Program-made: the position numbers and the translations under genes
Assembly: GCA_964635125.1 (NCBI GenBank)
Contig: CAZWMQ010000001.1
Coordinates: 84,386-148,385, forward strand
Direction of reading: 5' to 3'
DNA from: an uncultured Candidatus Saccharibacteria bacterium
GTDB taxonomy: Bacteria; Patescibacteriota; Minisyncoccia; Phycocordibacterales; UBA5272
Length of the DNA: 64,000 nucleotides
Part shown: in pieces, positions 1,309 to 54,478 of the stretch
Layout of the letters: every line of letters starts with the position of its first letter
How positions within the stretch are numbered: position 1 is the stretch's first letter
The notes under the pieces: generated by a model
What the model saw: the letters and a program-made list of their open reading frames with translations, nothing else
The model's database searches: none
What the model was told of the DNA's origin: nothing

Positions 1309-1596
1309 TTAGTTATTTTGAGTTAGGGTAGGGGCTTCTTCTTTATTCTTAGATTTCCTAGCAATTAAGAAAATATAAATAATTTCTAAAATTCCTAAAG
1401 TATTTATTATTAAGAAGATTATAAATCAAACTTTATGATGATTACGAGCTGATTTTCAGAGAGCAATACCTTTTCAGATTAAGCTCCATATAATTAAGCA
1501 AATTACAATTATTAAGACGATTAATCCATATTGCTTAAAAAGATTAATTGTTAAATTCGCAGGTCCAGTTGAGAGATTGCTTGTTAGATTGTTCAT
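1309..1596 (-). CDS. Small hypothetical membrane protein (95 aa; 3 in-frame UGA-Trp codons, so absent from the ORF track)
   Basis: Continuous reading frame under table 4 with a hydrophobic segment; no homology recognised. Confidence 0.3.
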
Positions 1597-1639: not shown

Positions 1640-1865
1640 AAGACACAAATACAAGTTTTAGGGCGGTTATATTTTTCTTGAAGCTTGTATCTTGGACGGG
1701 GAGTTGGTCACCACACATAGTCGTCATTTATTCCTCCTTGTGTCGCGACCCCGCTTCGCCGTCTCGCTCATTTTATTCGCGACTTCGTAGACGGCTCAGT
1801 TCAACCCCACCTCTCCCAATAAAATAAATCACTCGAAGCCTTGCTCCGAGTTCATTATTTTATAG
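1640..1865 (-). ncRNA. Conserved structured element immediately 3' of ssrA (copy 1 of a 2-member family; see 52270-52476)
   Basis: Shares the ataaaataatgaRctcgga...gagtgatttattttat hairpin, nested hairpins and a terminal tggtgacc + degenerate tRNA-3'-like end with the element 3' of tRNA-Ser. Confidence 0.4.
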
Positions 1866-2251
1866 TGGAAGTGGGGGGAGTCGAACCCCCGTGCAGATAG
1901 AGATTGTAAATGAGTCTAGTTTCATACTTAATTTTTTAAATTGTCGGCTAAATCTATTAAATTAAGAAAATAATTTAGCTTAGTTTTTTAGAGTTTCAAA
2001 ATTTTTAAAGAAAACTAATTTAAAAATTTCTACACACATTCTTTATAATATAGAAATCTTTACGATGTGTAAATAAAGAATCTATACCAAGGTGGCTTAA
2101 TTAAGCGGCCACTGGAGCGAAATTCGCCGAGAAAGGCGAAAGGATCGCTTTTGCAATTTTGTTTGCAATATATTTGAAAAGATTTAACGATTTATTTTCA
2201 TTATCGGAAACCACATTTACAAAGATCTAAGTGTCAAATCCTGACACTCCC
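1866..2251 (-). ncRNA. ssrA: tmRNA (transfer-messenger RNA)
   Basis: 5' gggagtg pairs with 3' cacttcc+A, with G3:U70 Ala identity; T-arm gggggttcgactccccc; internal tag ORF GCA AAC AAA ATT GCA AAA ... GTG GCC GCT TAA giving ANKIAKAILSPFSANFAPVAA* (minus 2166..2101); 386 nt; smpB nearby. Confidence 0.85.
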
Positions 2252-7376: not shown

Positions 7377-9860
7377 ATGGCTAAAAAAGATTTAAATAGT
7401 AATCAAGATAAAATCGAAGAAAATAATGAAAATACCCATAATAAAGTAGTAGAAATTGATATTTCTTCTGAGATGAAACAAAGTTATATTAATTATGCGA
7501 TGAGTGTGATTACTGATCGAGCTTTACCGGATGCGAAAGATGGGTTAAAGCCAGTGCATCGTCGAATACTTTACTCAATGCATCAGAATGGATTAACTTC
7601 TTCAGCAAGATTTAAAAAGTCAGCCACAGTAGTTGGAGATGTGCTCGGATCATATCATCCACATGGAGATGCTTCAGTTTACGATGCCATGGTTAATTTG
7701 GCTCAAGATTTTAAAACTCGCTACCCATTAATCTGGGGTCAAGGTAACTTTGGAAATATTGATGGAGATGGGGCGGCGGCTTATCGTTATACCGAGGCGA
7801 AAATGTCTAAGATAACTGGAGAAGTTTTGCGAGATATTGAAAAAGACACAGTCGATATGAAGGCTAACTTTGACGGAACTAAAAAAGAGCCAGCGGTTTT
7901 ACCGACCGCAGTACCTAATTTATTATTAAATGGAACACTTGGAATTGCTGTGGGAATGGCCACAAATATTCCACCACATAATCTTGGAGAAATTGTCGAA
8001 GCCACTACTCAATTAATTGATAATCCAGATTTAACTACGGAAGATTTATGTGAATTTGTAAAAGGGCCTGATTTTCCAACCGGAGCAGTAATCTATGGTA
8101 AGAATGATATTATTCACACTTATGCGACAGGAAGAGGAGGAATTGTTACCCGTGGCGAAGCAGAAATTGTGGAAATGAAAAATGGTAATTTACAGATTGT
8201 AATTACCTCGATTCCATTTCGAGTGGTTAAATCAACTTTGATAGAGAAAATCGCTGATTTAGTTCAAGAAAAAAAGATTGAAGGAATTAAAGGTCTTCGA
8301 GATGAATCAGCTAAAGACATAAGAATCGTGATTGATTTAAAAAGTGGGGTTGAACCTAAGAAAGTTTTAAATTATATTTATAAACACACTCAATTAGAAG
8401 ACACTTTTCATGTTAACTTAGTAGCTCTTGTAGATGGAGTTCCTCAGACTTTAAATTTAAAATCAGCTTTAAATGAATTTATTATTCATCGCAAGGTTGT
8501 AGTTAAAAGAAGAACTGAATTTGAACTTCGAAAAGCTGAAGGGAGAGAACATATTTTATTAGGTCTTAAAAAAGCTCTCGATCATATTGATGAGATTATT
8601 AAATTAATCAGAAAGTCTAAGTCAGTAGAAGAAGCTCATGCTGAACTAATGAAGCAATTTAAATTTACTCAAATTCAAGCTCAAGCAATTTTAGATATGA
8701 AGCTTCAGCGATTGGCTGGACTAGAAAGGAAAAAGATCGAAGATGAGTTGAAAGAAGTTCAAGAAGCAATTGCTGAATTAAAGGCAATCTTAGCTAGTGA
8801 GAAAAAGATGTTAAAAATTATTAAAGATGAATTAGTTGAGATTAAAGATAAATACGCTGATGAGAGACGAACTAAGGTTATGGCTAATAAAGCTAAAGAG
8901 TTTAATCCAGAAGATTTAATTACCGAGAAAGAAGCAGTCTTAATCTATACAGCAGGTGGATATGTTAAAAGAACTGATCCAGATGAATTTAAAACTCAAA
9001 AGCGAGGCGGAGTTGGAGTCGTCGATATGAATACTAAAGAGGAAGATTTTATCACAATATCTTTAACTACCAGCACACATTCGGATTTACTATTCTTTAC
9101 TGATAAAGGTAAAGTTTATCAGATTAAGATGTATGATATTCCAGAAGGTCGACGAGCTACAAGAGGTAAAAGTATTATGAATTATTTATCTATCGCAAGC
9201 GACGAGAAAGTTACTAGTATTTTACCAATGCCAAAAGATATTAAGAATACTAAAGCTTCTCTCGTTATGATTACAAAAGACGGGACAATTAAAAAGTCCT
9301 CTGCCGAGAGTTTTAAAGATGTTCGACGAAGTGGATTAATTGCGATAAAGTTAGCGGATAAAGATGTTTTGTTATCAGCTCTATTTGTAGAAGCCGGAGA
9401 TGATATTATTTTGACTTCTTCCGAAGGTCAATCTATCAGATTCGCTGAGAAAGACGTTCGCGAAATGGGTAGAACAGCAACTGGTGTTCGAGGAATGAAA
9501 TTAGACAAGAATGATAATATTGCCGCTAGCGATGTAATTAAGAAAGATCTTGGAAGTAAAGCTAAATTATTGGTAGGAACTGAAAAAGGTTATGGAAAAA
9601 TGACTAAGTTAACGGAGTATAAAACACAAGGGCGAGGAGGTAGCGGAATGAAGACCGTATCCGTTACTGAAAAGACTGGTAAATTAATTATGGCGAAAGT
9701 CATTTATGATGAAAGTAATGAAATCTTAGCTATCTCGCGACATTCCCAAGTTATTAAGACTAGTTTAGAAACTATCCCAACCTTAGGACGAGCGACTCAA
9801 GGAGTTCGAATTATGAAATTACGAGAAGGGGATACCGTAGCTAGTTTAGCCGTTTTATAA
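7377..9860 (+). CDS. gyrA: DNA gyrase subunit A
   Basis: 827 aa; [26 protein letters not shown] active-site region and C-terminal beta-pinwheel repeats. Confidence 0.95.
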
Positions 9861-39323: not shown

Positions 39324-42300
39324 ATGGGTAATAGTAGAGCAAGAACTAATAAAAAAAGAACCCTAAGAGAAATTATAACTTCTAAGATGAGTAAAGAGGA
39401 TAGAGATGTCTTAATTAAGCGAGAAGCGGAAGAGTATTTAGCTATTTGTAGAGACGAATCTTGCCATAAGGTAGTTAAACAAGTAAAGAAGTCTAAGCAT
39501 TTTTTAAAATGAGCTATTAAACTAATCTTACCTGATTTTTTAGTTGGACATCCTAATCTTTTTGATAATTTCCGAACTCTACGAACCCATCCACAATTCC
39601 ATGCTTTTCGGAGAGCGATAATTGCTTGGATAATATTTACTGTAATAGTCAGCTCATCCGGAATCTATTCTTTAATTAATGCTAAAAAAAGTAGTGCTCA
39701 AGTACAATTTCAATTTAAAACTGGATATTATTTAGGGGCCGGAGATGGAACAGTCAAACATATTACAGGCTTAGGATTTAAGCCGGAGGTCTTGATAATA
39801 AAAGCTGATACTACAGCAGGATATGCAATATTTAAAACAGCCTCTATGTCAAGTGGAGAATATGCTTATTTTGCTGCTTCAGCAGATAATGTAGAGAATC
39901 AAATAACTTTTGATGACGATGGTTTTACTTTACAATTAAATGGAGATGTCAATGCTAATAATGTTATTTATAAATATATTGCCTTCGCCGGCAATGATTG
40001 TTCTTCATCTGGAGTAATGTGTTACGGTTCTTATAATGGAAATTATGTAGTCGGGTCACCTAATCAGACTATAAATACAGGATTTAGTCCTGATCTTGTA
40101 ATTGTAAAACGTACCATAACTACAGCCGCTAATTTTCTAACTTCTGTTATGCCAGATTCTGGAGCAGGATATGCTAGTTTTTTCACAGCTACGGCCGACG
40201 ACACTACTGCTAATTATTTTCCGGCGAATTCCATTAGCAGTAATGGGTTTACGGTGGGTCCATCTAACAATACTTATGCCGGATTATTTTATTATTTAAC
40301 TTTTAAAAAAGGTGCTGGGATTTTAGATGTCGGAAGTTATACTGGTAATGGAACTAGTCAAACCATAAGTCCTCCATTAATGTCTCAAGTTACTCCAAAC
40401 TTCGTACTTACTAAAGCTACCACTGCAGTTTTGCCTGTATTTAATACGACTCAAAGCTACGGTGACTATTCAAGTGTTTTATCTAATGCTGCTAATGTTA
40501 CTGGAGCTATAAAGCAATTAATTCCAGGCGGTTTTTCATTAGGTAATAGTAGCTATTCTAATAGTAATAATACAGGTTATTGATATTTTAGTTTTGCTGG
40601 TGGGAACATGCCGGTAGCCAACGGTTCATTTTTAATGAAAGCAGGATCATATGTTGGAGATGGCAGTGCTAACCGTACAATTGGAGATATAGGATTCACC
40701 CCTGATTTAGTTATTGTAAAATCTGACGGACCAGATTATGCAATTTGAAGCACATCCATGGATTATAATTTTTCTCATTATTTTTCAGTAGCCTTAGCTG
40801 GCATAACCAATGCTATTTTAGGTATGGTTAATGGCGGATTTACCATAGGATCACATTCTACAGTTAATACTAATGGTACAACTTATCATTATGAAGCTTT
40901 TGGAAATGCTTCAACCCCATTTGCAGGTGGGAGAGCGGCTGATTTTGTAATCGGAGCTTATACTGGTAATGGTTTAGTGAGAGATATAACTAATTTACCA
41001 GTTAGTCCTGACATGGTGATGATAAAAGAAAACGGTACAGATGCAGCGACTGTTTGGTCTTCAACTATAATGGCGACAGGGACAACAGCTTTCTTATCAG
41101 CAACAACTAACGATGTTTCTGGAAATTTAATCAAACAGATTAATTCAGATGGATTTTCTTTAGGTACTAATAATATTGTAAATCGATCTGGTTATGTAAA
41201 TAATTTCTTTGCCTTTTCAAAAAGTGCTGCTTTTAATATAGGATTATATACAGGTTCTGGCAGTCAGCAAGATATAACTACTACCGATGGAAATACTGCC
41301 ATAGGGTTTACCCCAGATTATGTCATAACTAAAAGAAGTACCAATGTTGATCCTGCTCATCGATCAAGCGCAATAGATTTAGGAAATACGACTCAGTATT
41401 TTAAAAATGTGGCTAATTTTAATAATGGTATTACTGATATTATTAATGGAGGATTTAGAGTGAGTACTGACGCCACCGTTAATACAAATAGTGGAACTTA
41501 TTATTTTTTTGCTTGAAAGGCTAGTACAGCTACAACTTCACCAGCAACACCAGTTAATGTTTCTCCACCTGATAATGCTTCTGATATTGGTTTAAACGAC
41601 ACTTTACAAGCTTCTGCTTATACAGATTTAAATCCTCAATTAGGTACTATGTGACAAATAGCAGATGATCCAAATTTTAATTCTTTAGTTTGAAGTCGAA
41701 CAACAAATAACGCTGAAACAAGTATTGTTATTAATTCTAGTAATGGAGTGTTTTCCGGTTCTTTAAATGGAAAACAAAAGCTTAAACACAACACTAATTA
41801 TTATTGAAGAGTAAAGTATTCTAATAGTGTGTATTCAGCATGATCGACCTCAACCTCTTTTAAAACTTTAGCAATAGATAAACCAACTAATATTTCTCCA
41901 ACAGATCAAGAAATTATTAGCACATTGAGTCCACTTCTAAGCGCTTCTACTTTTTCTGATCCAGAAGTAGGGGATACAGCAAATTTAGTTGAATGACAAA
42001 TAGATACTAAGATTAATTTTGACTCACCAATTTACGATTCGGGATCTATTAGCTATAATAATTCTATAACAATTCCAGACGCGACTCTTTCTGATAGGAC
42101 GGTATATTATTGAAGAGTTAGGTATTTGGATTCTGATAATCAATGATCTGATTATTCAACACCTACCAGATTCTTAACTTCTAAAGAAGCAGAAGTCTCG
42201 GTCAATCCTCTTTTCGGAGGGAATGTAGTTAATCAAGGAGACCAGGTAAAAATTGATGCCCAAGTTAAGACAGTAGATGGTTTAGCAGTTAATGATGCTA

Positions 42301-45300
42301 CAACGACAATTAGTATTTATAATCCTTCTGGTGCGAAGATTATCAATAATGAGACGATGAATTACATCGCATCATCTAGTGGTATTTATCGATATCCATT
42401 TACTATTCCAAATATTGATGGAAGTTATTTGTATGAAATATCTGCAAAGACTGGTATATATAATGGACTAGGAGCAGCAAATTTTGAAGTTAGAAATACA
42501 GCACAAGATATAGCTGATACAAAATCTACAGTGGTAAATAATAACAATCTAATTACTGACACTAAAAATATTGCCTCAAATACTCAAAATCTTACAAATA
42601 ATATAAAGACTACGGTGGAAGATACTCAAAACATTGCTTCCAATACTCAAAATCTCGCGAATAATATAAAAACCACTGTAGATGACACACAGTCTATCGC
42701 TTCTTCTACGAATTCTCTAACTTCTTCTATTAAAAATACAGTGGAGAGTAATAAAGCCAACCTAGATATTTTAGTTGGAGCTTTTATTGTGACTCAAGGA
42801 TCGGTGAATGACGCTTCTCCCACAACTAATTCTTTTATCTCTTCTCTGACGAATTCTACTGATAATTTTTATAAAAATTCAGTCTTAACTTTTACTTCTG
42901 GAGTCTTAGACGGACAAAGTAGAAGAGTCAGTGATTATAGTGGGACTACTAAGAGATTCACTTTAGATCCTGCTTTGACTAATGCACCAGTTACGGGAGA
43001 TACTTTTACTATCACTACCCAAAATGTCCGAGTCGAAGAACAAGTTGCTGATCACGAGGCCTCATCTTCAGCTTTTCGAGCTGACACTACTTCTCGTTTA
43101 ACAAGTATTGAAGGTAAAGTAGATTCAATTATCTCAACTTTAAATACTGTAGATTCTAATTTAGATGATGCTCAAAGTATGCTTAATCAAGTAAGACAAG
43201 CTCAAAATAATAATTATACTATTGAGTATTCTGATATATCTAAAATTCAAGCTGGGACCACTTATCGTGCTAAATTAACCATTTTAGATTTTCAAGATAA
43301 GCCAGTTGATGCTTCTTCCACTCCGTCTGTGATAATTTATGATCCTACACGAGCAACAGCTACAGGTACTCCAGCCACTATGACTAGGCTCTCAACTGGA
43401 GTTTATGAATATACTTATATCACTAGTACTGATGCCGTGGCTGGATTGTGAGAGAGTGTAGCTACAATTAATATAAACGGAGAAAATATTACAAAGAATG
43501 ATTATTTTGAAGTAGCCGGAGCTCCTGCTCAGGTGTTTATTAATAGTATAAGTAATACTAATATCCCTAATATTTCAGCTGAAACAACAATTACCAACGA
43601 AGGAGGGGGAGAATATGAATATCATTATGAATGATGTGTAGTCTCAACTGAAAACAATCCTTGTGGAGGAAGTGATGATATTTATTATGCTTCCGGAGCT
43701 AAGCTTATATCACCTGGACAGAGTTTTACTCCAACTTTGACCGCCACAGTCAATCAGATTGGTGATTATTGGTTTAAGTTAGTCGTATATTATGGTACAG
43801 AAGTAAGTGCAGCTTCAAGAACATTTACAGCCACTAATAATATAAATAACAATGGTAATAGTAGTGGTAGCAGTGGAGGGGGTGTCTCTTATAATCCCGC
43901 TAGCCAAACAGATATATATCAAGAATTAACAGATATTCATAATCAATTAGATATAAATTCTCAAAAGCTTTCGGCCACCTTAGATAGTCTAGGAATTATT
44001 AATCCAGTTTTAAAAAATCTTTTAGAAGTAGTTAGTTTAAGTAGTAATAATTTAAAAGACACCCAGAATAAAGTTGCCGATCTTAAAGCTATTTCAGCAA
44101 CTATTAGACAAATTGTCGATGGAGGAGCAACTACACCAACTGTAGAGACCTATATGAAATTTAATTCTGTTGAAATTCATTTTCTTATTACCAATCCTTC
44201 AGATGAAGCTCAGACAGTAAAATTTAAAGCTTTCTTGCCAGCTGAAGCTAAACCAGAAAATATAATGAATTTAGACGGATTACAAATAGACTATGATACA
44301 AATGCTAATAGTTATTATGTTCACGGGGATATTTATCTAAAAGCAAAAGAAAGTATTGCCAAGGAAGTCGAGATGAAAGATATCTGACAATTTTCTAAAG
44401 AAGAAATACAATCTATCAGAGACCAAGTCTCAGAATTAATTGGATTATTAAAAAAATCTCAATATGAAACTGATGGAGTATTATTAAAAAATAGTATAGA
44501 ATCAACATTAAATATTATTACAAATAAACAAGACGAGAGTTATTCCTCCCCTCAAGAACACATTGTTACATTTAGAGAAAATCAAGAGAGAATGCTAGAA
44601 GTTAAAAATAATTTAGAGAAATTAAAGTCTTTAGTTTCAGAGGCTAATAATTCTAAAAGTATAGTTGGAAATATTGGAGGTATACAAACTTTTGCTACCT
44701 GAGGAATTATTTTAGCTATTGTCTTTGGATTCGCTTTACTGGCTGTTGTGATATTTGCTATGTGAAGGCATCAAACCATTTTAGCTACACAAGCTTTAGG
44801 TTTAAGTAAATTAGATACAGATAAGCATTTTGGTAAGAAAGTATTTGATAAATACTCAAATGTAGATATTAATGAGGAGGCAGGATATTTTCATCAACAT
44901 AAGTCTATTAAAAAGATAGTCTTAGTTATTATTTTATCCTCAATGATTATAGTATTTGGTATTTTTGCTTCCAGGTATATATATAGATTTAAAGATATAT
45001 CATTTTTGAAAAATATAAAAGTAATCGATGATAAAGTTAATGTAAATAACACTTTAATTAAAGAAGAAGATAAAGGCGATACTAGTGTTCCCACAAGCGA
45101 GGAAAAAGCTAATACTAATTTAGCTCAAAATGATTTAGATAATATAAGCTCTAACAATACTGATTTATTGGAAATATTAAATACTGAAACGGGCTGACTA
45201 AATGTTAGAAGTGAACCATCTTCTAAATCTGATTTAATCAATAAAGTATATCCACAAGAGAAATATCAGTATATAGACAAAAAAGATAATTGGTATAAAA

Positions 45301-45362
45301 TTATATTAAAAGATAAATCTACAGGTTGGGTCTATGATAAATATGTTAAAATCACCAATTAA
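39324..45362 (+). CDS. Giant cell-surface protein (about 2012 aa) with N-terminal cytoplasmic basic segment and TM, tandem beta-rich repeats, FN3/Ig-like segments with conserved YYWRV, 21-aa tandem repeats, two C-terminal TMs and a C-terminal bacterial SH3 (SH3b) domain; at least 15 UGA-Trp codons
   Basis: Six track ORFs (39324, 39792, 40758, 42357, 43737, 44943) and the intervening segments all lie in one frame with no TAA/TAG; UGA falls at W of repeated YY-W-RVKY/RVRY motifs; C-terminal WLNVRSEPS..GWVYDKYVKI SH3b-like. Confidence 0.75.
42567..42755 (+). repeat. Three tandem 63-bp (21-aa) repeats NIASNTQNLTNNIKTTVEDTQ inside the giant gene
   Basis: Direct tandem repetition at DNA and protein level. 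Confidence 0.8.
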
Positions 45363-48142: not shown

Positions 48143-49897
48143 ATGTCGAAAGATACCAAGCCTAAGCCAGATTCCAAAAAGAAATCTGGTAATATTTTTG
48201 AAATTCTAAGAGAATATAAAAAATTTATATTATTTTTAATTCTTTTAGGAATTACTTCAAATGTTCTAACTTTAATTATCCCAAAATTAATCTCTAAGGG
48301 TATTGATAGTTATAATAATCACACTTTAATATTCAAAAGTTTGATTATAGAATTTGGGATGGTAATAATTGGTATTTTTATTTTTACTTTTTTCCAGACC
48401 ATAGTTCAGACTATTGTTTCAGAAAAGGTGGCTTATAATTTTCGGGAGAAATTAGCTAAAAAGATATCAAGACAAGACTATGAGTTTTTAAAAGTTGTAA
48501 ATCCAAATAAACTTTTAACTAATTTAACTTCAGATATAGATTCATTAAAAATGTTTGTTTCTCAAGCTATAGTCCAAAGTGTTTCCTCGATTGTAATTAT
48601 TATCGGAGCTAGTATTTTATTGATTAGTATTGATCTTAAATTAGGATTATTTGTTTTTTTAATGATACCAGTTATCATTATTGTTTTCATATTTATTTTT
48701 AAGAAAGCTAAAATGCTTTTTACTAAAATTAGAACAATTATTGATTGATTAAATAAAGTCATTTCGGAAAGTATCTTAGGTTCAGCTATCATTAGAGTTT
48801 TAAATATACAGGATTTGGAAATTAAAAAGTTTAGTGAAGCTAATACTGAAGCCAGAGATACTGGTATTAAGATAGTAAAGCTTTTTGCCATCATGATACC
48901 AAGTATAACTTTGATTGCTAACTTAGCCACACTCGCCGTTTTAGTTTTAGGTGGGCATTATGTAATAATTAAAGAATTAAGTATTGGTGATTTCACCGCT
49001 TTCTTATCATATATTATTATATTAATTTTCCCAATTTTGATTTTAGGATTTATTTCTAATATAATTGCTCAAGCTAGTGCATCTTACACGAGAATTAAAG
49101 AAATTTTAGATAAAAATGATATTAAAGACACTGGAAACTTAAATAGTGAAATTAATGGAGATATAAAGATTGAAAAGCTGTCTTTAAAATTTGAAGAAGA
49201 TGAGATCTTAAAAGATATTAATTTTAAAGTTTCTAAGTATAGTAAAACGGCTATTATTGGTCCGACAGCCGCAGGCAAAACACAACTATTATATGTTATG
49301 TCTGATCTAATTAAGAGAAGTGGAGGAGAAATATATTATGATAATAATTTGATAGAAAATTACGAAAAGAATCATTTTCATAAACAAGTCACCCTTGTTT
49401 TTCAGGATAGTGTAATATTTAATTTATCAATTCGTGAAAATATTGCTTTTGATAATTCAGTTTCTACTGAAGATTTATATAAAGCTATAAAGACAGCCGA
49501 ACTGGAGGATTTTATAGAATCTTTGCCAGAAGGTTTAGATACTATAATCGGAGAGAGGGGAGGGACTTTATCGGGAGGACAAAAGCAGAGAATAATGCTT
49601 GCTCGAGCACTGGCGATTAATCCAAAAGTTTTATTGTTAGATGATTTTACAGCTAGAGTCGATGAGCGAACTGAGAAGAAGATTTTAGCTAATTTAGAAA
49701 AGAACTATCCCAATCTTACTATTGTATCAGTGACTCAGAAAATTTCTTCAGTCGAGAAATATGACAATATAATTGTTTTAATGGAAGGGGAAATTATAGC
49801 CACAGGAACTCATCAAGAATTACTAAGCTCTTCTCCGGAATATAATCAGATTTATAATTCACAACGAAGCACTAATCATTATGAATTACAATCTTAA
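48143..49897 (+). CDS. ABC exporter, fused permease-ATPase (MsbA/MdlB-like), subunit 1 (584 aa; one UGA-Trp)
   Basis: 6-TM region then Walker A GPTAAGKT, signature LSGGQKQR, Walker B LLLDD. Confidence 0.8.
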
Positions 49898-51635
49898 TAC
49901 ACAAGAGCAAAACGAAAAGAAAAATACCTTGAGATCTTTCAAGAAGTTTTTCCCATTTTTGAGATCAGAAAAGAATAATTTAATTATTTCTTTAATTTTT
50001 ATTTTATTAAGTTCAAGCTTATCATTATTAGCTCCGATAATAATTGGTAAGACAGTAGATAAATACATTTCTCAAGGCGATTATCATGGAGTAATTTTAT
50101 TTGGGATTATGCTTTTAATAATTTATTTACTAAGTGTGTTTTTTTCTTATTTGCAAATTACGATAATGGGAAAAGTTGGTCAGAGATTATTATTCAATTT
50201 AAGAAATAGTGTATTTCTTAAATTACAATCCTTACCAATTAGTTTTTTTAACCAAAATAAAGCTGGGGATTTAATTTCCCGTATTAATAATGATACGGAT
50301 AAATTAAATCAATTCTTCTCTCAATCTCTAATGCAATTTATTGGAAGTATTTTTATGATTATTGGAGCGGGAGTATTTTTAATTTCTCTAAAACCAATCC
50401 TAGGAATTATCATTTTAATTCCAGCTATATTAATATTAATTTTCACTAAGATAATTTCTCCTTGAGTTGCTCGTAAAAATTTAATTAATTTAAATAAGAT
50501 TGGAAATCTTTCAGCAGAGATTCAAGAGAGCTTAGAGAATTTTAAAGTGATAATTTCATTTAATCGACGAGATTATTTTATCGAGAAATTTAAAAAAGTT
50601 AATCAAGAGACTTATCAAAGTGGTATCTGGTCAGCCATAGCTAACGGAAGTCTGACTCCAGTTTATACTATGTTTAGTAATTTAGCCAAACTTTTCGGGT
50701 TAGTTTTTGGAATATATTTAATTATTAAGGGATCTTTGACTATTGGAATATTGATAAGTTTTATAACTTATACGACTAATTTTTACAACCCTCTTCAACA
50801 GATTGCGGCGATTTGGACTAGTTTTCAATCTGCGATGGCCGGCTGGGAAAGGATTAACAAAGTTTTGATTTTAGAAAATAATTTATTATTAGTGAAAGAT
50901 AATAATATTAAAGACAATAGAAATATTTTAGAGTTAGAAGGAGTCAGTTTCTCTTATACTGAGGATAAGTTAGTTTTAAATAACATTTCTTTATCCTTAG
51001 AAATCGGTAGAACTTATGCTTTGGTCGGTCCAACTGGTGGTGGAAAGACAACCACCGCAAGCTTAATCGCTAGACTTTATGATGCTAAAGAGGGCAAGAT
51101 TTATTTAGATGGTAAAGATATACGATCTTATAGCGAAAATGAAAAGACTAATTTAATAGGATTTATTTTACAAGATGCATTTTTGTTTGAAGGATCATTT
51201 AAGGATAATATTTTATATGGAAATAATTTATATACTGATATAGCTGATGAAGAATTATTAAAAATTTTAAAAGAAAAAGGATTAATTGAGATTTTGCAGA
51301 GATTTAAAGATGGATTAGAGACTAAGATCGATAAGAATCAAAATCTTAGTCTTGGGCAGAAACAATTAATTGCTTTTGTTCGAGCTGTCTTGCGAGAGCC
51401 GAAGATATTAATTTTAGACGAAGCTACTGCCAATGTAGATACCATCACTGAACAATTATTAGAGAAAGCTTTAAATTGTCTACCAAAGACCACCACTAAG
51501 ATTATTATTGCTCATCGTCTTAATACGATTGAGAATGCTGATCAGATATTTTTCGTCAATAATGGAGAAATTGTAAATGCGGGAAATATGCAAGAGGCAA
51601 TTAATCTTATTTTACATCGAGATAGAAAGAGTTAA
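49881..51635 (+). CDS. ABC exporter, fused permease-ATPase, subunit 2 (584 aa; one UGA-Trp)
   Basis: Walker A GPTGGGKTT, signature LSLGQKQ, Walker B ILILDEAT; 17-nt overlap with subunit 1, suggesting a heterodimer. Confidence 0.8.
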
Positions 51636-51696: not shown

Positions 51697-52143
51697 TTAT
51701 TGATTAGTTGTTTCTTTACCAGTGAAGAGAGTTTGTCCATCATTAGAAATTGTAATCTCTCCTTGATGTTCTCAAAGTTGCATACCTTTATCAACTTCGG
51801 TGAATGAATTAGAGTATCTTGCCCCTGATCCAGACATGGCCTCCGGTAAAGTATAATCTTGACCAACTCAAGAGAAAGTTACAGTTGAAGTGGAAGTGGT
51901 AGAATTATTAAAGGCTATATTAACTGTGGTAGTTCCATCAGTTGCTGAAACATTTACTGTCTTATAAGCTTTAGTAGTTGAAGCAGTATTGTTTTCAGCT
52001 GGCTGATTAGTATTAGGTTTTTTAAGTAAAGCAATAATTGCAATGATTATTAAGATTATTATTACAATAATAGATCAAGTCGAGCCATCTCTTTTCTTAG
52101 GGCCCTCTTGATTATTATTGGTATTATTATTTTCATTATCCAT
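51697..52143 (-). CDS. MliC-family (membrane-bound lysozyme inhibitor of C-type lysozyme)-like protein, membrane-anchored (148 aa; 3 UGA-Trp)
   Basis: N-terminal TM, then the SGSGARY motif typical of MliC; not in the ORF track because of three TGAs. Confidence 0.45.
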
Positions 52144-52269: not shown

Positions 52270-52476
52270 TTTAAATTTTACGGAGAATGAGGGATTCGGT
52301 CACCAAATATATATTTTTATTTCATTTTTTCAAATTCATAAAAATATTATTTCTCGACCCCTGTATCAGAGCTTCACTCACTTCGTGAGTGGCTTCGCAA
52401 GCTCTTCAATTCGAATCCCGCACTCTCCGATAAAATAAATCACTCAGAATTTCATTCCGAGCTCATTATTTTATTG
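52270..52476 (-). ncRNA. Conserved structured element immediately 3' of tRNA-Ser (copy 2; paralog of 1640-1865), ending in a degenerate copy of the tRNA-Ser 3' end (ccgaatccctcattctcc)
   Basis: Shared 45-nt hairpin motif, nested hairpins, terminal tggtgacc; 19-nt imperfect repeat of the tRNA T-arm/acceptor. Confidence 0.4.
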
Positions 52477-52564
52477 CGGAGGATGAGGGATTCGAACCCT
52501 CGAACAGCTTTACACCGTTGCCACCTTTCCAAGGTGGTGCACTAGACCGCTATGCGAACCCTCC
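52477..52564 (-). tRNA. tRNA-Ser (anticodon GGA), type II with long variable arm
   Basis: Acceptor ggagggt/atcctcc+G, anticodon loop ttGGAaa, long variable arm, T-arm gagggttcgaatccctc. Confidence 0.8.
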
Positions 52565-54327: not shown

Positions 54328-54401
54328 GCTCCCATAGCTCAGTTGGTTAGAGCATACGGCTTATATCCGTAGGGTCCTTGGTTCGAGTCCAAGTGGGAGC
54401 A
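54328..54401 (+). tRNA. tRNA-Ile (anticodon UAU, reads AUA)
   Basis: Cloverleaf: acceptor gctccca/tgggagc+A, anticodon stem tacgg/ccgta, loop ctTATat, T-arm cttggttcgagtccaag. Confidence 0.75.
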
Positions 54402-54441
54402 CTTTGAGAATTTTTCTGAGTGAAGTAAAGATATTGTAGAT

Positions 54442-54478
54442 TTATACGTACGGTCCTTGGTTCGAGTCTAGATGTGTG
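54442..54478 (+). pseudogene. Partial tRNA 3'-half duplicate (T-arm region ggtccttggttcgagtc identical to tRNA-Ile(UAU); divergent acceptor)
   Basis: 17-nt exact repeat of the adjacent tRNA T-arm 40 nt downstream; cannot fold as a complete tRNA. Confidence 0.5.

Follow-up and report, generated by a model that had tools for sequence, protein, structure and literature searches.

Repeats and genes at the tRNA-Ser locus

The window, by which we mean the whole 64,000-nucleotide stretch of DNA that was analysed, contains a tRNA-Ser(GGA) gene on the minus strand at 52477-52564, recognized by ARAGORN and by the Rfam tRNA model (52.3 bits). CCA is not encoded by this gene; its discriminator G (52477) is followed by CA. 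The final 18 nt of the tRNA, CGAATCCCTCATCCTCCG, correspond to positions 56-73 and run from C56 of the T loop to the discriminator G73. A search of the 64-kb window for CGAATCCCTCATCCTCCG with up to three mismatches returned exactly three sites, all at the tRNA-Ser locus: the tRNA tail itself (DR1, 52477-52494(-), no mismatches), a direct repeat downstream (DR2, CGAATCCCTCATTCTCCG, 52281-52298(-), one mismatch), and, between these two, an imperfect antisense copy of the tail that is matched on the plus strand with three mismatches (antiDR, CGGAGAGUGCGGGAUUCG, 52412-52429 in the minus-strand unit). The chance expectation from 100 dinucleotide shuffles was 0.00, and the triple repeat DR1/antiDR/DR2 is far beyond chance. 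The repeat of the tRNA 3' end had been reported in an earlier note on this DNA and is real, although the offset given there, 205 nt, has to be replaced by a start-to-start distance of 196 nt; the inverted copy was absent from that note.

Read in the sense of the tRNA, the parts follow one another as the tail DR1 with its CA, a hairpin (H), antiDR, a core composed of the hairpins P2 and P3 with invariant junction bases, and finally DR2, and all of them lie on the minus strand. Hairpin H (52431-52474) folds as an A-rich arm, UGA, a 9-bp stem, GAU and a U-rich arm, with a tandem G.A internal loop, and includes a terminator-like site at 52462-52442. From its sequence, H looks like an intrinsic terminator; other terminators of the source genome are also built of an A-tract, a stem and a T-tract and resemble it. 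The first part of the core (52362-52411), taken from the helix list and from covariation of P2 among 33 members, holds the junction (G)AAUUGA, the P2 hairpin with a GCGAAGC bulge and a C-GAA-G tip, and the junction GAUACA. The second part, P3 (52298-52361), was placed by motif match and comprises GGGGUCGAGA, a long AU-rich hairpin and UUUGGUGACC. In the predicted fold, antiDR and DR2 are the 5' and 3' strands of a helix, P1, in which 17 of 18 positions are paired and which closes a three-way junction. The unit is strongly structured (minimum free energy -74 kcal/mol, z-score -8.1), and 52277-52433 scores 103.8 bits with covariance model R1.

A second copy stands at the other end of the window, behind the tmRNA gene at 1865-2251(-) (ARAGORN; Rfam 80.8 bits). 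We refer to it as copy 1. Its hairpin H occupies 1819-1862(-), with a terminator-like site at 1851-1831, and compared with H of the tRNA-Ser copy it has identical flanks and a compensated stem. It is followed by antiDR (1803-1818(-)) and the core of P2 and P3 (1706-1802(-)), both from the helix list, and by a partial repeat of the tail, CAACTCCCC(GU), at about 1694-1706(-). Together antiDR, core and partial repeat span 1694-1818(-), and model R1 gives 104.1 bits over 1685-1823. Copy 1 shares the plan of the tRNA-Ser copy, with the motifs GAACUGA, CGAAG, GGGGUCGCGA and UGGUGACC all present. The tRNA-Ser insert is thus homologous to the stretch after the tmRNA gene (about 1694-1864(-)), as the earlier note had proposed in describing two copies of one element, and the repeat is clearest at the tRNA-Ser copy, 18 nt against only about 9-11 nt (CAACTCCCC) at copy 1. 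The covariance model found no third copy in the 64-kb window, where both known copies score about 104 bits.

The same note had called the intervening DNA of about 200 nt non-coding, and in agreement with this the two window copies share no conserved reading frame. A coding reading was considered, as an ATG-initiated frame spans both copies if TGA is a sense codon, and was rejected because the peptides diverge by frameshifts and the stems are compensated. It had further raised the case in which the downstream repeat belongs to a different functional RNA. DR2 is indeed part of a structure, being the 3' strand of the closing helix, but that structure is the element's own and not an unrelated RNA.

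Covariation and match to the local tRNA

An alignment of 33 members was used to count pairs. Standard pairs fill 87.8% of the cells compared to 70.4% after shuffling (none of 500 shuffles was as high), double-sided changes occur in 26 of the 35 pairs, and the covariation score is 0.50 against 0.09-0.12 when the partners are slid by one to three columns. Covariation is free in P2 and in the AAAYA:URUUU part of P3. The base of P3, GGUCG:UGACC, is invariant among the 33 members and contains a G.U pair, which identifies the folded strand as the tRNA-sense strand; in an orthologous unit (L164, below) its pairs are swapped compensatorily to GGCUA:GAGCC. The invariant bases of the core are GAAYUGA, CGAAGC, GGGGUCGNGA and UGGUGACC, in addition to the two hairpins. 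RNAalifold also joins the CU in GAACUGA to the AG in CGAAGC across a tandem G.A step, and the CGAAGC or C-GAA-G motif is repeated at the P2 bulge, the P2/P3 junction and the hairpin tips.

The arms of the unit follow the tRNA beside which it lies. The outer 16 nt of antiDR bind the tail of their own tRNA with a mean of -12.4 kcal/mol, compared to -7.2 +/- 3.2 kcal/mol for other tails, and the own tail ranks among the first three of 30 in 20 of 30 cases. Complementarity of antiDR to the real tail DR1 is at least as high as that to DR2, and many copies have perfect direct repeats of 19-24 nt. DR2 always starts at C56, abutting the invariant GGUGAC at the boundary of positions 55 and 56. The junctions are always GGUU|C and GGUGAC|C, and hairpins H and P3 are subterminal. 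Within P1 the inner 7-10 bp are always paired while the outer part is often mismatched. These mismatches comprise 41 G.U and 42 A.C and therefore show no RNA-type preference for wobble pairs. As antiDR is able to pair with DR1 as well as with DR2, the full precursor is bistable in silico: its minimum free energy structure (-109.3 kcal/mol) consists of the cloverleaf, H and the junction, and in the centroid antiDR is paired with the tRNA tail.

GCGAAGC-type caps are known as unusually stable DNA mini-hairpins. Such caps, the terminator-like H, the lack of a promoter and the lack of wobble bias make us lean toward DNA as the active form, and the sequence conservation of junctions and loops would suit RNA or single-stranded DNA equally.

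Distribution of the family

One genome per species was scanned with the reverse complement of the core motif GAAYTGA..GGGGTCGNGA..TGGTGACC, which gave 42 loci. Of these, 33 come from records of Saccharibacteria, Parcubacteria, Paceibacteria, Nomurabacteria or Yanofskybacteria, and all 33 of these CPR-titled loci have the same architecture. The other nine are coding-like sequences in GC-rich non-CPR genomes that score 19.5 bits or less, or do not match the model. A scan of metagenomes returned 27 stretches, of which about 17 are genuine, bringing the total to about 50 copies across Saccharibacteria, Parcubacteria and their relatives. Both scans used the same single strict pattern, so the breadth of the family is underestimated.

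Among the loci of the genome scan and those of relatives there are 49 model matches of at least 24 bits, and 29 of them begin 33-50 nt past a tRNA or tmRNA gene on the same strand. Six divergent units begin 60-73 nt past such a gene, five are second units of a tandem or follow an intron-containing tRNA, and the others are at contig edges, in L156 or in L129. The usual spacing behind the host gene, which is on the same strand, is 38-46 nt, with few exceptions. Taking the two scans together, the hosts include at least 11 tRNA types (Gly, Val, Lys, Leu, Arg, Ser, Asp, Glu, His, Cys and Thr) as well as tmRNA. The units are protein-less and measure about 190-215 nt. Several genomes (e.g. CAZNZP01) carry at least five copies, and only some of the tRNAs in each genome carry one. 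On these sequences the family is one of CPR/Patescibacteria, where it is specific to tRNA and tmRNA genes and to their 3' ends.

Searches outside these genomes returned no members. The strict core pattern had no match in viral contigs, a loose pattern selected 115 stretches whose 80 listed loci are noise under the model, and two half-patterns returned GC-rich noise only. BLAST against phage and plasmid collections gave no match to the unit. Rfam, searched at the gathering threshold and at E <= 10, reported only tRNA, tmRNA and noise, and Rfam 15 is without a model for the unit. Full-text searches of the literature found no description of such a unit, and the family is previously unannotated and apparently undescribed.

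Besides the standard type, at least two further architectures were seen. An A-type variant, with a P2-like hairpin inside the antisense strand and the 3' motif UUUGUGACC, is present in L138 (2270-2429), L156 and L135 (490-580) and often stands in tandem with the standard type. Another subfamily, GAAUUGAAAGG..., is found in L127, L140 and L147. In L127 (690-950) a unit follows a tRNA gene that is split in its anticodon loop by about 200 nt of inserted sequence, probably a group I intron of the type reported for Patescibacteria tRNAs (PMC13011429).

Presence and absence at orthologous sites

The gene order around copy 1 is conserved (smpB, helicase, tmRNA, DUF5652, infC, rpmI, rplT). The unit is present after the tmRNA gene in the window, in L001 and in L002. 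At L003 and L004/L005 the intact tmRNA gene is followed directly by a spacer and a promoter, with no H, core or repeat and no model match at the tmRNA site. A more distant genome (L162) has a different member of the family at its tmRNA gene, with a perfect 22-nt repeat. The orthologous tRNA-Ser(GGA) gene of L164 was reached via the ABC transporter gene, the 525-aa neighbour having given one contig that ends inside the tRNA. It is followed by two tandem, mutually divergent units where the window has one, the first of which is clearly orthologous to the tRNA-Ser copy of the window and differs from it by compensatory changes. The unit thus behaves as an insertion, being absent at the orthologous tmRNA sites of L003 and L004 and present once or twice at tRNA-Ser. 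Elsewhere there are arrays, units that are truncated or have internal deletions, and 3' parts duplicated in tandem. Candidate cargo lies between the repeat and H in two cases: in L179, where it measures 420 nt, and in L156, where 1.3 kb with two open reading frames separates the tRNA from the first unit.

The single contig that ends inside tRNA-Ser, L163, is a short-read contig, and it ends at its position 1 exactly where the tandem units of L164 (8900-9370) begin. Repeats of the unit appear to break assemblies at tRNA genes. The partial tRNA repeats that the unit creates also confuse annotation, and the unit is a ready presence/absence marker for population genomics of CPR.

Two signals bear on how units spread and how long they stay. 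In one Saccharibacteria assembly (L126/L154/L152) the units at tRNA-Val and tRNA-Lys have cores of 100% identity and yet wholly different antiDR and direct repeats, a pattern that fits recent copying with new arms. The third copy of that assembly, L152, is a mosaic whose H and P3 are of the Val/Lys type and whose P2 belongs to an Arg-specific lineage known from another genome. Short-tract gene conversion therefore also operates, and it may likewise account for cores that are identical but carry different arms. Between the window and L002, the tmRNA-linked unit is 96-97% identical compared to 84% for the tmRNA, 56% for the next spacer and 65% for the next gene. Such identity calls for purifying selection at the level of the host or else for an arrival that was recent, independent and site-specific; it points to host-level selection or a very recent arrival and not to a decaying parasite, and counts against the unit being a mobile module. 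The compensatory differences between the tRNA-Ser orthologs also count against it, as they suggest long residence under constraint.

Neighbouring genes

No recombinase, transposase or reverse transcriptase gene recurs near the units, and no recombinase gene lies in or near the approximately 50 copies. Clustering of open reading frames near 34 loci yielded only syntenic housekeeping families. The neighbours of the two window copies are MliC-like, DUF5652 and infC genes. Downstream genes were considered as cargo and rejected, as the two small membrane proteins (MliC-like and DUF5652) are not homologous. Longer, autonomous versions of the unit were sought through distant second repeats, and the extra repeats proved to be other tRNA genes. 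In neither window copy is there a promoter between H and the core.

The gene directly after the tRNA-Ser unit (51697-52143(-)) encodes a membrane-anchored MliC-like lysozyme inhibitor and is not found at this position in L164. A pair of ABC transporter genes lies at 48143-51635(+). The second of these (49881-51635) has, apart from two CPR relatives, its best homologs among Bacteroidota proteins (57-58% identity), which suggests horizontal acquisition.

Comparison with known systems

Integrative elements of tRNA and tmRNA genes resemble the unit in their insertion at the 3' end, the duplicated tail, the restoration of the gene by element sequence and tandem accretion. They differ in that the unit is gene-less, only about 200 nt long, has a conserved fold that covaries and carries within it an antisense copy of the target, and its repeat starts at a point fixed at 55/56 by an invariant motif. 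As no recombinase accompanies it, the unit is not a classical att element. The attC cassettes of integrons have a similar order of core site, body, inverse core site, variable centre and core site, imperfect inverted repeats that fold in one strand, and arrays of diverse units. In our unit, by contrast, the 'core site' is the local tRNA tail and varies by locus, and the centre is conserved in sequence; attC boxes (RYYYAAC/GTTRRRY) are absent from the unit boundaries, and intI and attI are absent nearby.

By analogy, members of the IS200/IS605 group and PATE may be compared as small, structured and strand-specific elements that are without inverted terminal repeats and have internal complementarity to the flank, and for which precise excision is conceivable. 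The complementarity of the unit would be much longer (17-25 nt against 4-5 nt), its direct repeat is long, and no TnpA or TnpB gene is nearby. The ends of the unit, ...CAAUAAAAUAAUGA and UUUGGUGAC, are not inverted repeats, and its repeat of 18-24 nt is locus-specific and not of 2-15 bp. Since it has neither terminal inverted repeats nor a short target duplication, the unit is not a MITE or a classical IS. TnpB/IscB omega-RNAs were considered as well; no nuclease gene stands beside the window copies or recurs at other loci, and Rfam gave no match.

Among RNA-related systems, the primer-binding sites of LTR elements and tRF-3 share with the unit an 18-nt complement of the tRNA 3' end that starts from the T loop, DR2 corresponding to the tRF-3 region. 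Unlike an LTR primer-binding site, the complement in the unit is without UGG for CCA, and there is no reverse transcriptase nearby and there are no LTRs. The closing helix imitates acceptor and T stems and ends in a tRNA-type 3' end, as do the tRNA-like minihelix RNAs (the tRNA-like domain of tmRNA, YrlA, mascRNA). Its helix, unlike theirs, is continuous, extends up to 17 bp, reaches T-loop sequence and is neighbour-specific, and the unit has no intact T loop and no Rfam match. Group I introns occur in tRNA genes of Patescibacteria, and group II introns are reported absent from them (PMC13011429). Such group I introns are likewise small, structured and protein-less passengers of tRNA genes in the same phylum (PMC13011429), but the unit follows a complete tRNA, is not inside it and has a different fold; the Rfam model Intron_gpI did not match the unit even at E <= 10.

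No curated Rfam model of a T-box or riboswitch matches the unit at gathering or E-value thresholds, and a T-box likeness of UGGUGACC was dropped, having no model match. A box C/D or K-turn reading was suggested by the CUGA that follows the antisense strand and by tandem G.A pairs flanking P2, but there is no C box and no 3-nt bulge, and the 'guide' is paired with DR2. A hammerhead mapping of the junction failed on the absence of the CUGANGA core, and a two-piece (permuted) tmRNA scored 26.8 bits against a threshold of 47, with an alignment that merely reuses the real tmRNA tail.

Possible nature of the unit

The earlier note had seen in this locus the geometry of an attL/attR pair. Part of that stands: two copies of the tail enclose a discrete unit of about 200 nt, which behaves as an insertion. 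The conserved covarying fold, and the lack of a recombinase in or near the approximately 50 copies, show that it is no classical integrase scar. The best-supported reading, which we nevertheless regard as evenly balanced, is that the unit is an inserted, non-autonomous module that is mobilized in trans and acts as a single strand. If it is, a free form, probably circular and single-stranded, would carry one copy of the tRNA tail and would recombine with the identical 18-24-nt segment of a tRNA gene in a Campbell-type exchange, by site-specific or short-homology recombination catalysed in trans, and the tail would be left duplicated. In the single-stranded form, antiDR and the tail would fold into a duplex copy of the target stacked on the conserved P3, with the GGUGAC|C junction beside the duplex as the putative recognition or exchange site. 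Because the folded P1/P3 would present a duplex target copy at GGUGAC|C, the antisense strand may set or check the choice of target. H would terminate transcription of the tRNA, and so the host gene would stay intact. The logic has precedents in the folded single-strand attC of integrons, the folded attP of CTX phage and the DNA-guided site recognition of IS608. Taken as a whole, the exchange of a free single-stranded form at the tRNA tail is a tentative proposal that we would not expect to hold in full, and the absence of copies from viral contigs and from phage and plasmid records counts against a mobile module for want of a vehicle. It also counts against such a module that neither a mobilizing enzyme nor a free form or an excision junction was seen.

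A bolder form of the mobile module would make the unit a self-contained, programmable targeting device, in which the antisense guide directs a trans-acting host or helper enzyme to a matching tRNA tail and is rewritten when the unit moves. Rewriting is suggested by the identical cores with different arms in one genome, but we think this form doubtful. If true, it would represent a new class of mobile element, directed by a guide through a folded single strand, in a phylum whose mobile elements are barely known.

The strongest rival, and a serious one, is that the unit is a host-serving RNA of the 3' trailer, co-transcribed with the tRNA or tmRNA, whose closing helix mimics an acceptor/T-arm minihelix and acts in cis or in trans on the biology of the tail. 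It might take part in processing by RNase P or Z or in CCA addition, serve as a decoy for tail-binding factors, or act as a switch in which the antisense strand pairs with the tail or the repeat; it would have spread among tRNAs through gene duplication and gene conversion and not through transposition. A trailer RNA would suit a core that is better conserved between species than the tmRNA (97% against 84%), compensatory swaps in otherwise invariant P3 pairs of the tRNA-Ser orthologs, a constant tRNA-sense orientation at a fixed distance, an invariant G.U pair that fixes the sense strand, the bistable precursor and the gene-conversion-like mosaicism of L152. It is harder to reconcile with H, which scores as an intrinsic terminator upstream of the core with no promoter between them, and with the patchy presence of the unit, with empty sites in close relatives, only some tRNAs per genome carrying it, divergent units in tandem arrays and truncated units; the P1 mismatches (G.U:A.C 41:42) also lack the expected wobble preference. 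On balance we consider a trailer RNA possible but not probable.

The tails of tRNA and tmRNA genes are classic integration sites, and a duplicated tail is the signature of such integration. The signature is seen here, and together with the 1.3 kb and two open reading frames between the tRNA and the first unit of L156 it could speak for the scar of an integrase-driven island or prophage, a larger element at the tail whose later deletion left attL, a piece of an arm and attR. We think a scar highly improbable. The same boundaries and covarying fold recur about 50 times at no fewer than 11 tRNA types, no integrase remnant is present, and independent deletions would not converge on one structured unit of 200 nt. 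That the locus is a local accident, an ordinary terminator plus a tail duplicated by chance or slippage, with no family and no function, draws on the likeness of H to other A-tract/stem/T-tract terminators in the genome; it is refuted by the chance expectation of 0.00, the 104 bits of both window copies and a family that spans the CPR.

CPR/Patescibacteria make up a large share of bacterial diversity, and their non-coding RNAs and mobile elements are almost unexplored. The recurrent, conserved and structured unit described here belongs to no Rfam family and falls outside the definition of each class of mobile element that could be checked. If the module is mobile, its internal antisense copy would suggest that a protein-less unit of 200 nt chooses its site by base pairing, which would be of mechanistic interest and possibly useful as a tool, and a host RNA would be a new kind of tRNA-specific trailer or mimic.

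Genetic code and additional observations

The source genome has a G+C content of 29.5% and reads TGA as a sense codon, for example in the genes at 1309-1596(-) and 49881-51635(+). In relatives, Trp stands opposite TGA at each of the four testable sites, which points to TGA=Trp (code 4) rather than to code 25, the code with UGA=Gly known from Gracilibacteria and Absconditabacteria. The close relative L002 shares the use of TGA as sense, and L003 and L004 use TGG. Relatives of the SmpB protein carry Parcubacteria or Patescibacteria names.

Spacers of this lineage are built of (T)CAAG(A/T) repeats, e.g. CCAAGATACAAGCTTCAAG, as in the window at about 1650-1700(-) and in L164 at 9370-9480. At 54328-54475(+), about 48 nt downstream of a tRNA-Ile gene with the anticodon UAU, there is a partial repeat of 22 nt (cgtaSggtccttggttcgagtc) that duplicates positions ~39-60 of this tRNA; its geometry is unlike that of the tRNA-Ser unit and it does not match the covariance model. 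A single open reading frame of 2012 codons extends over 39324-45362(+).
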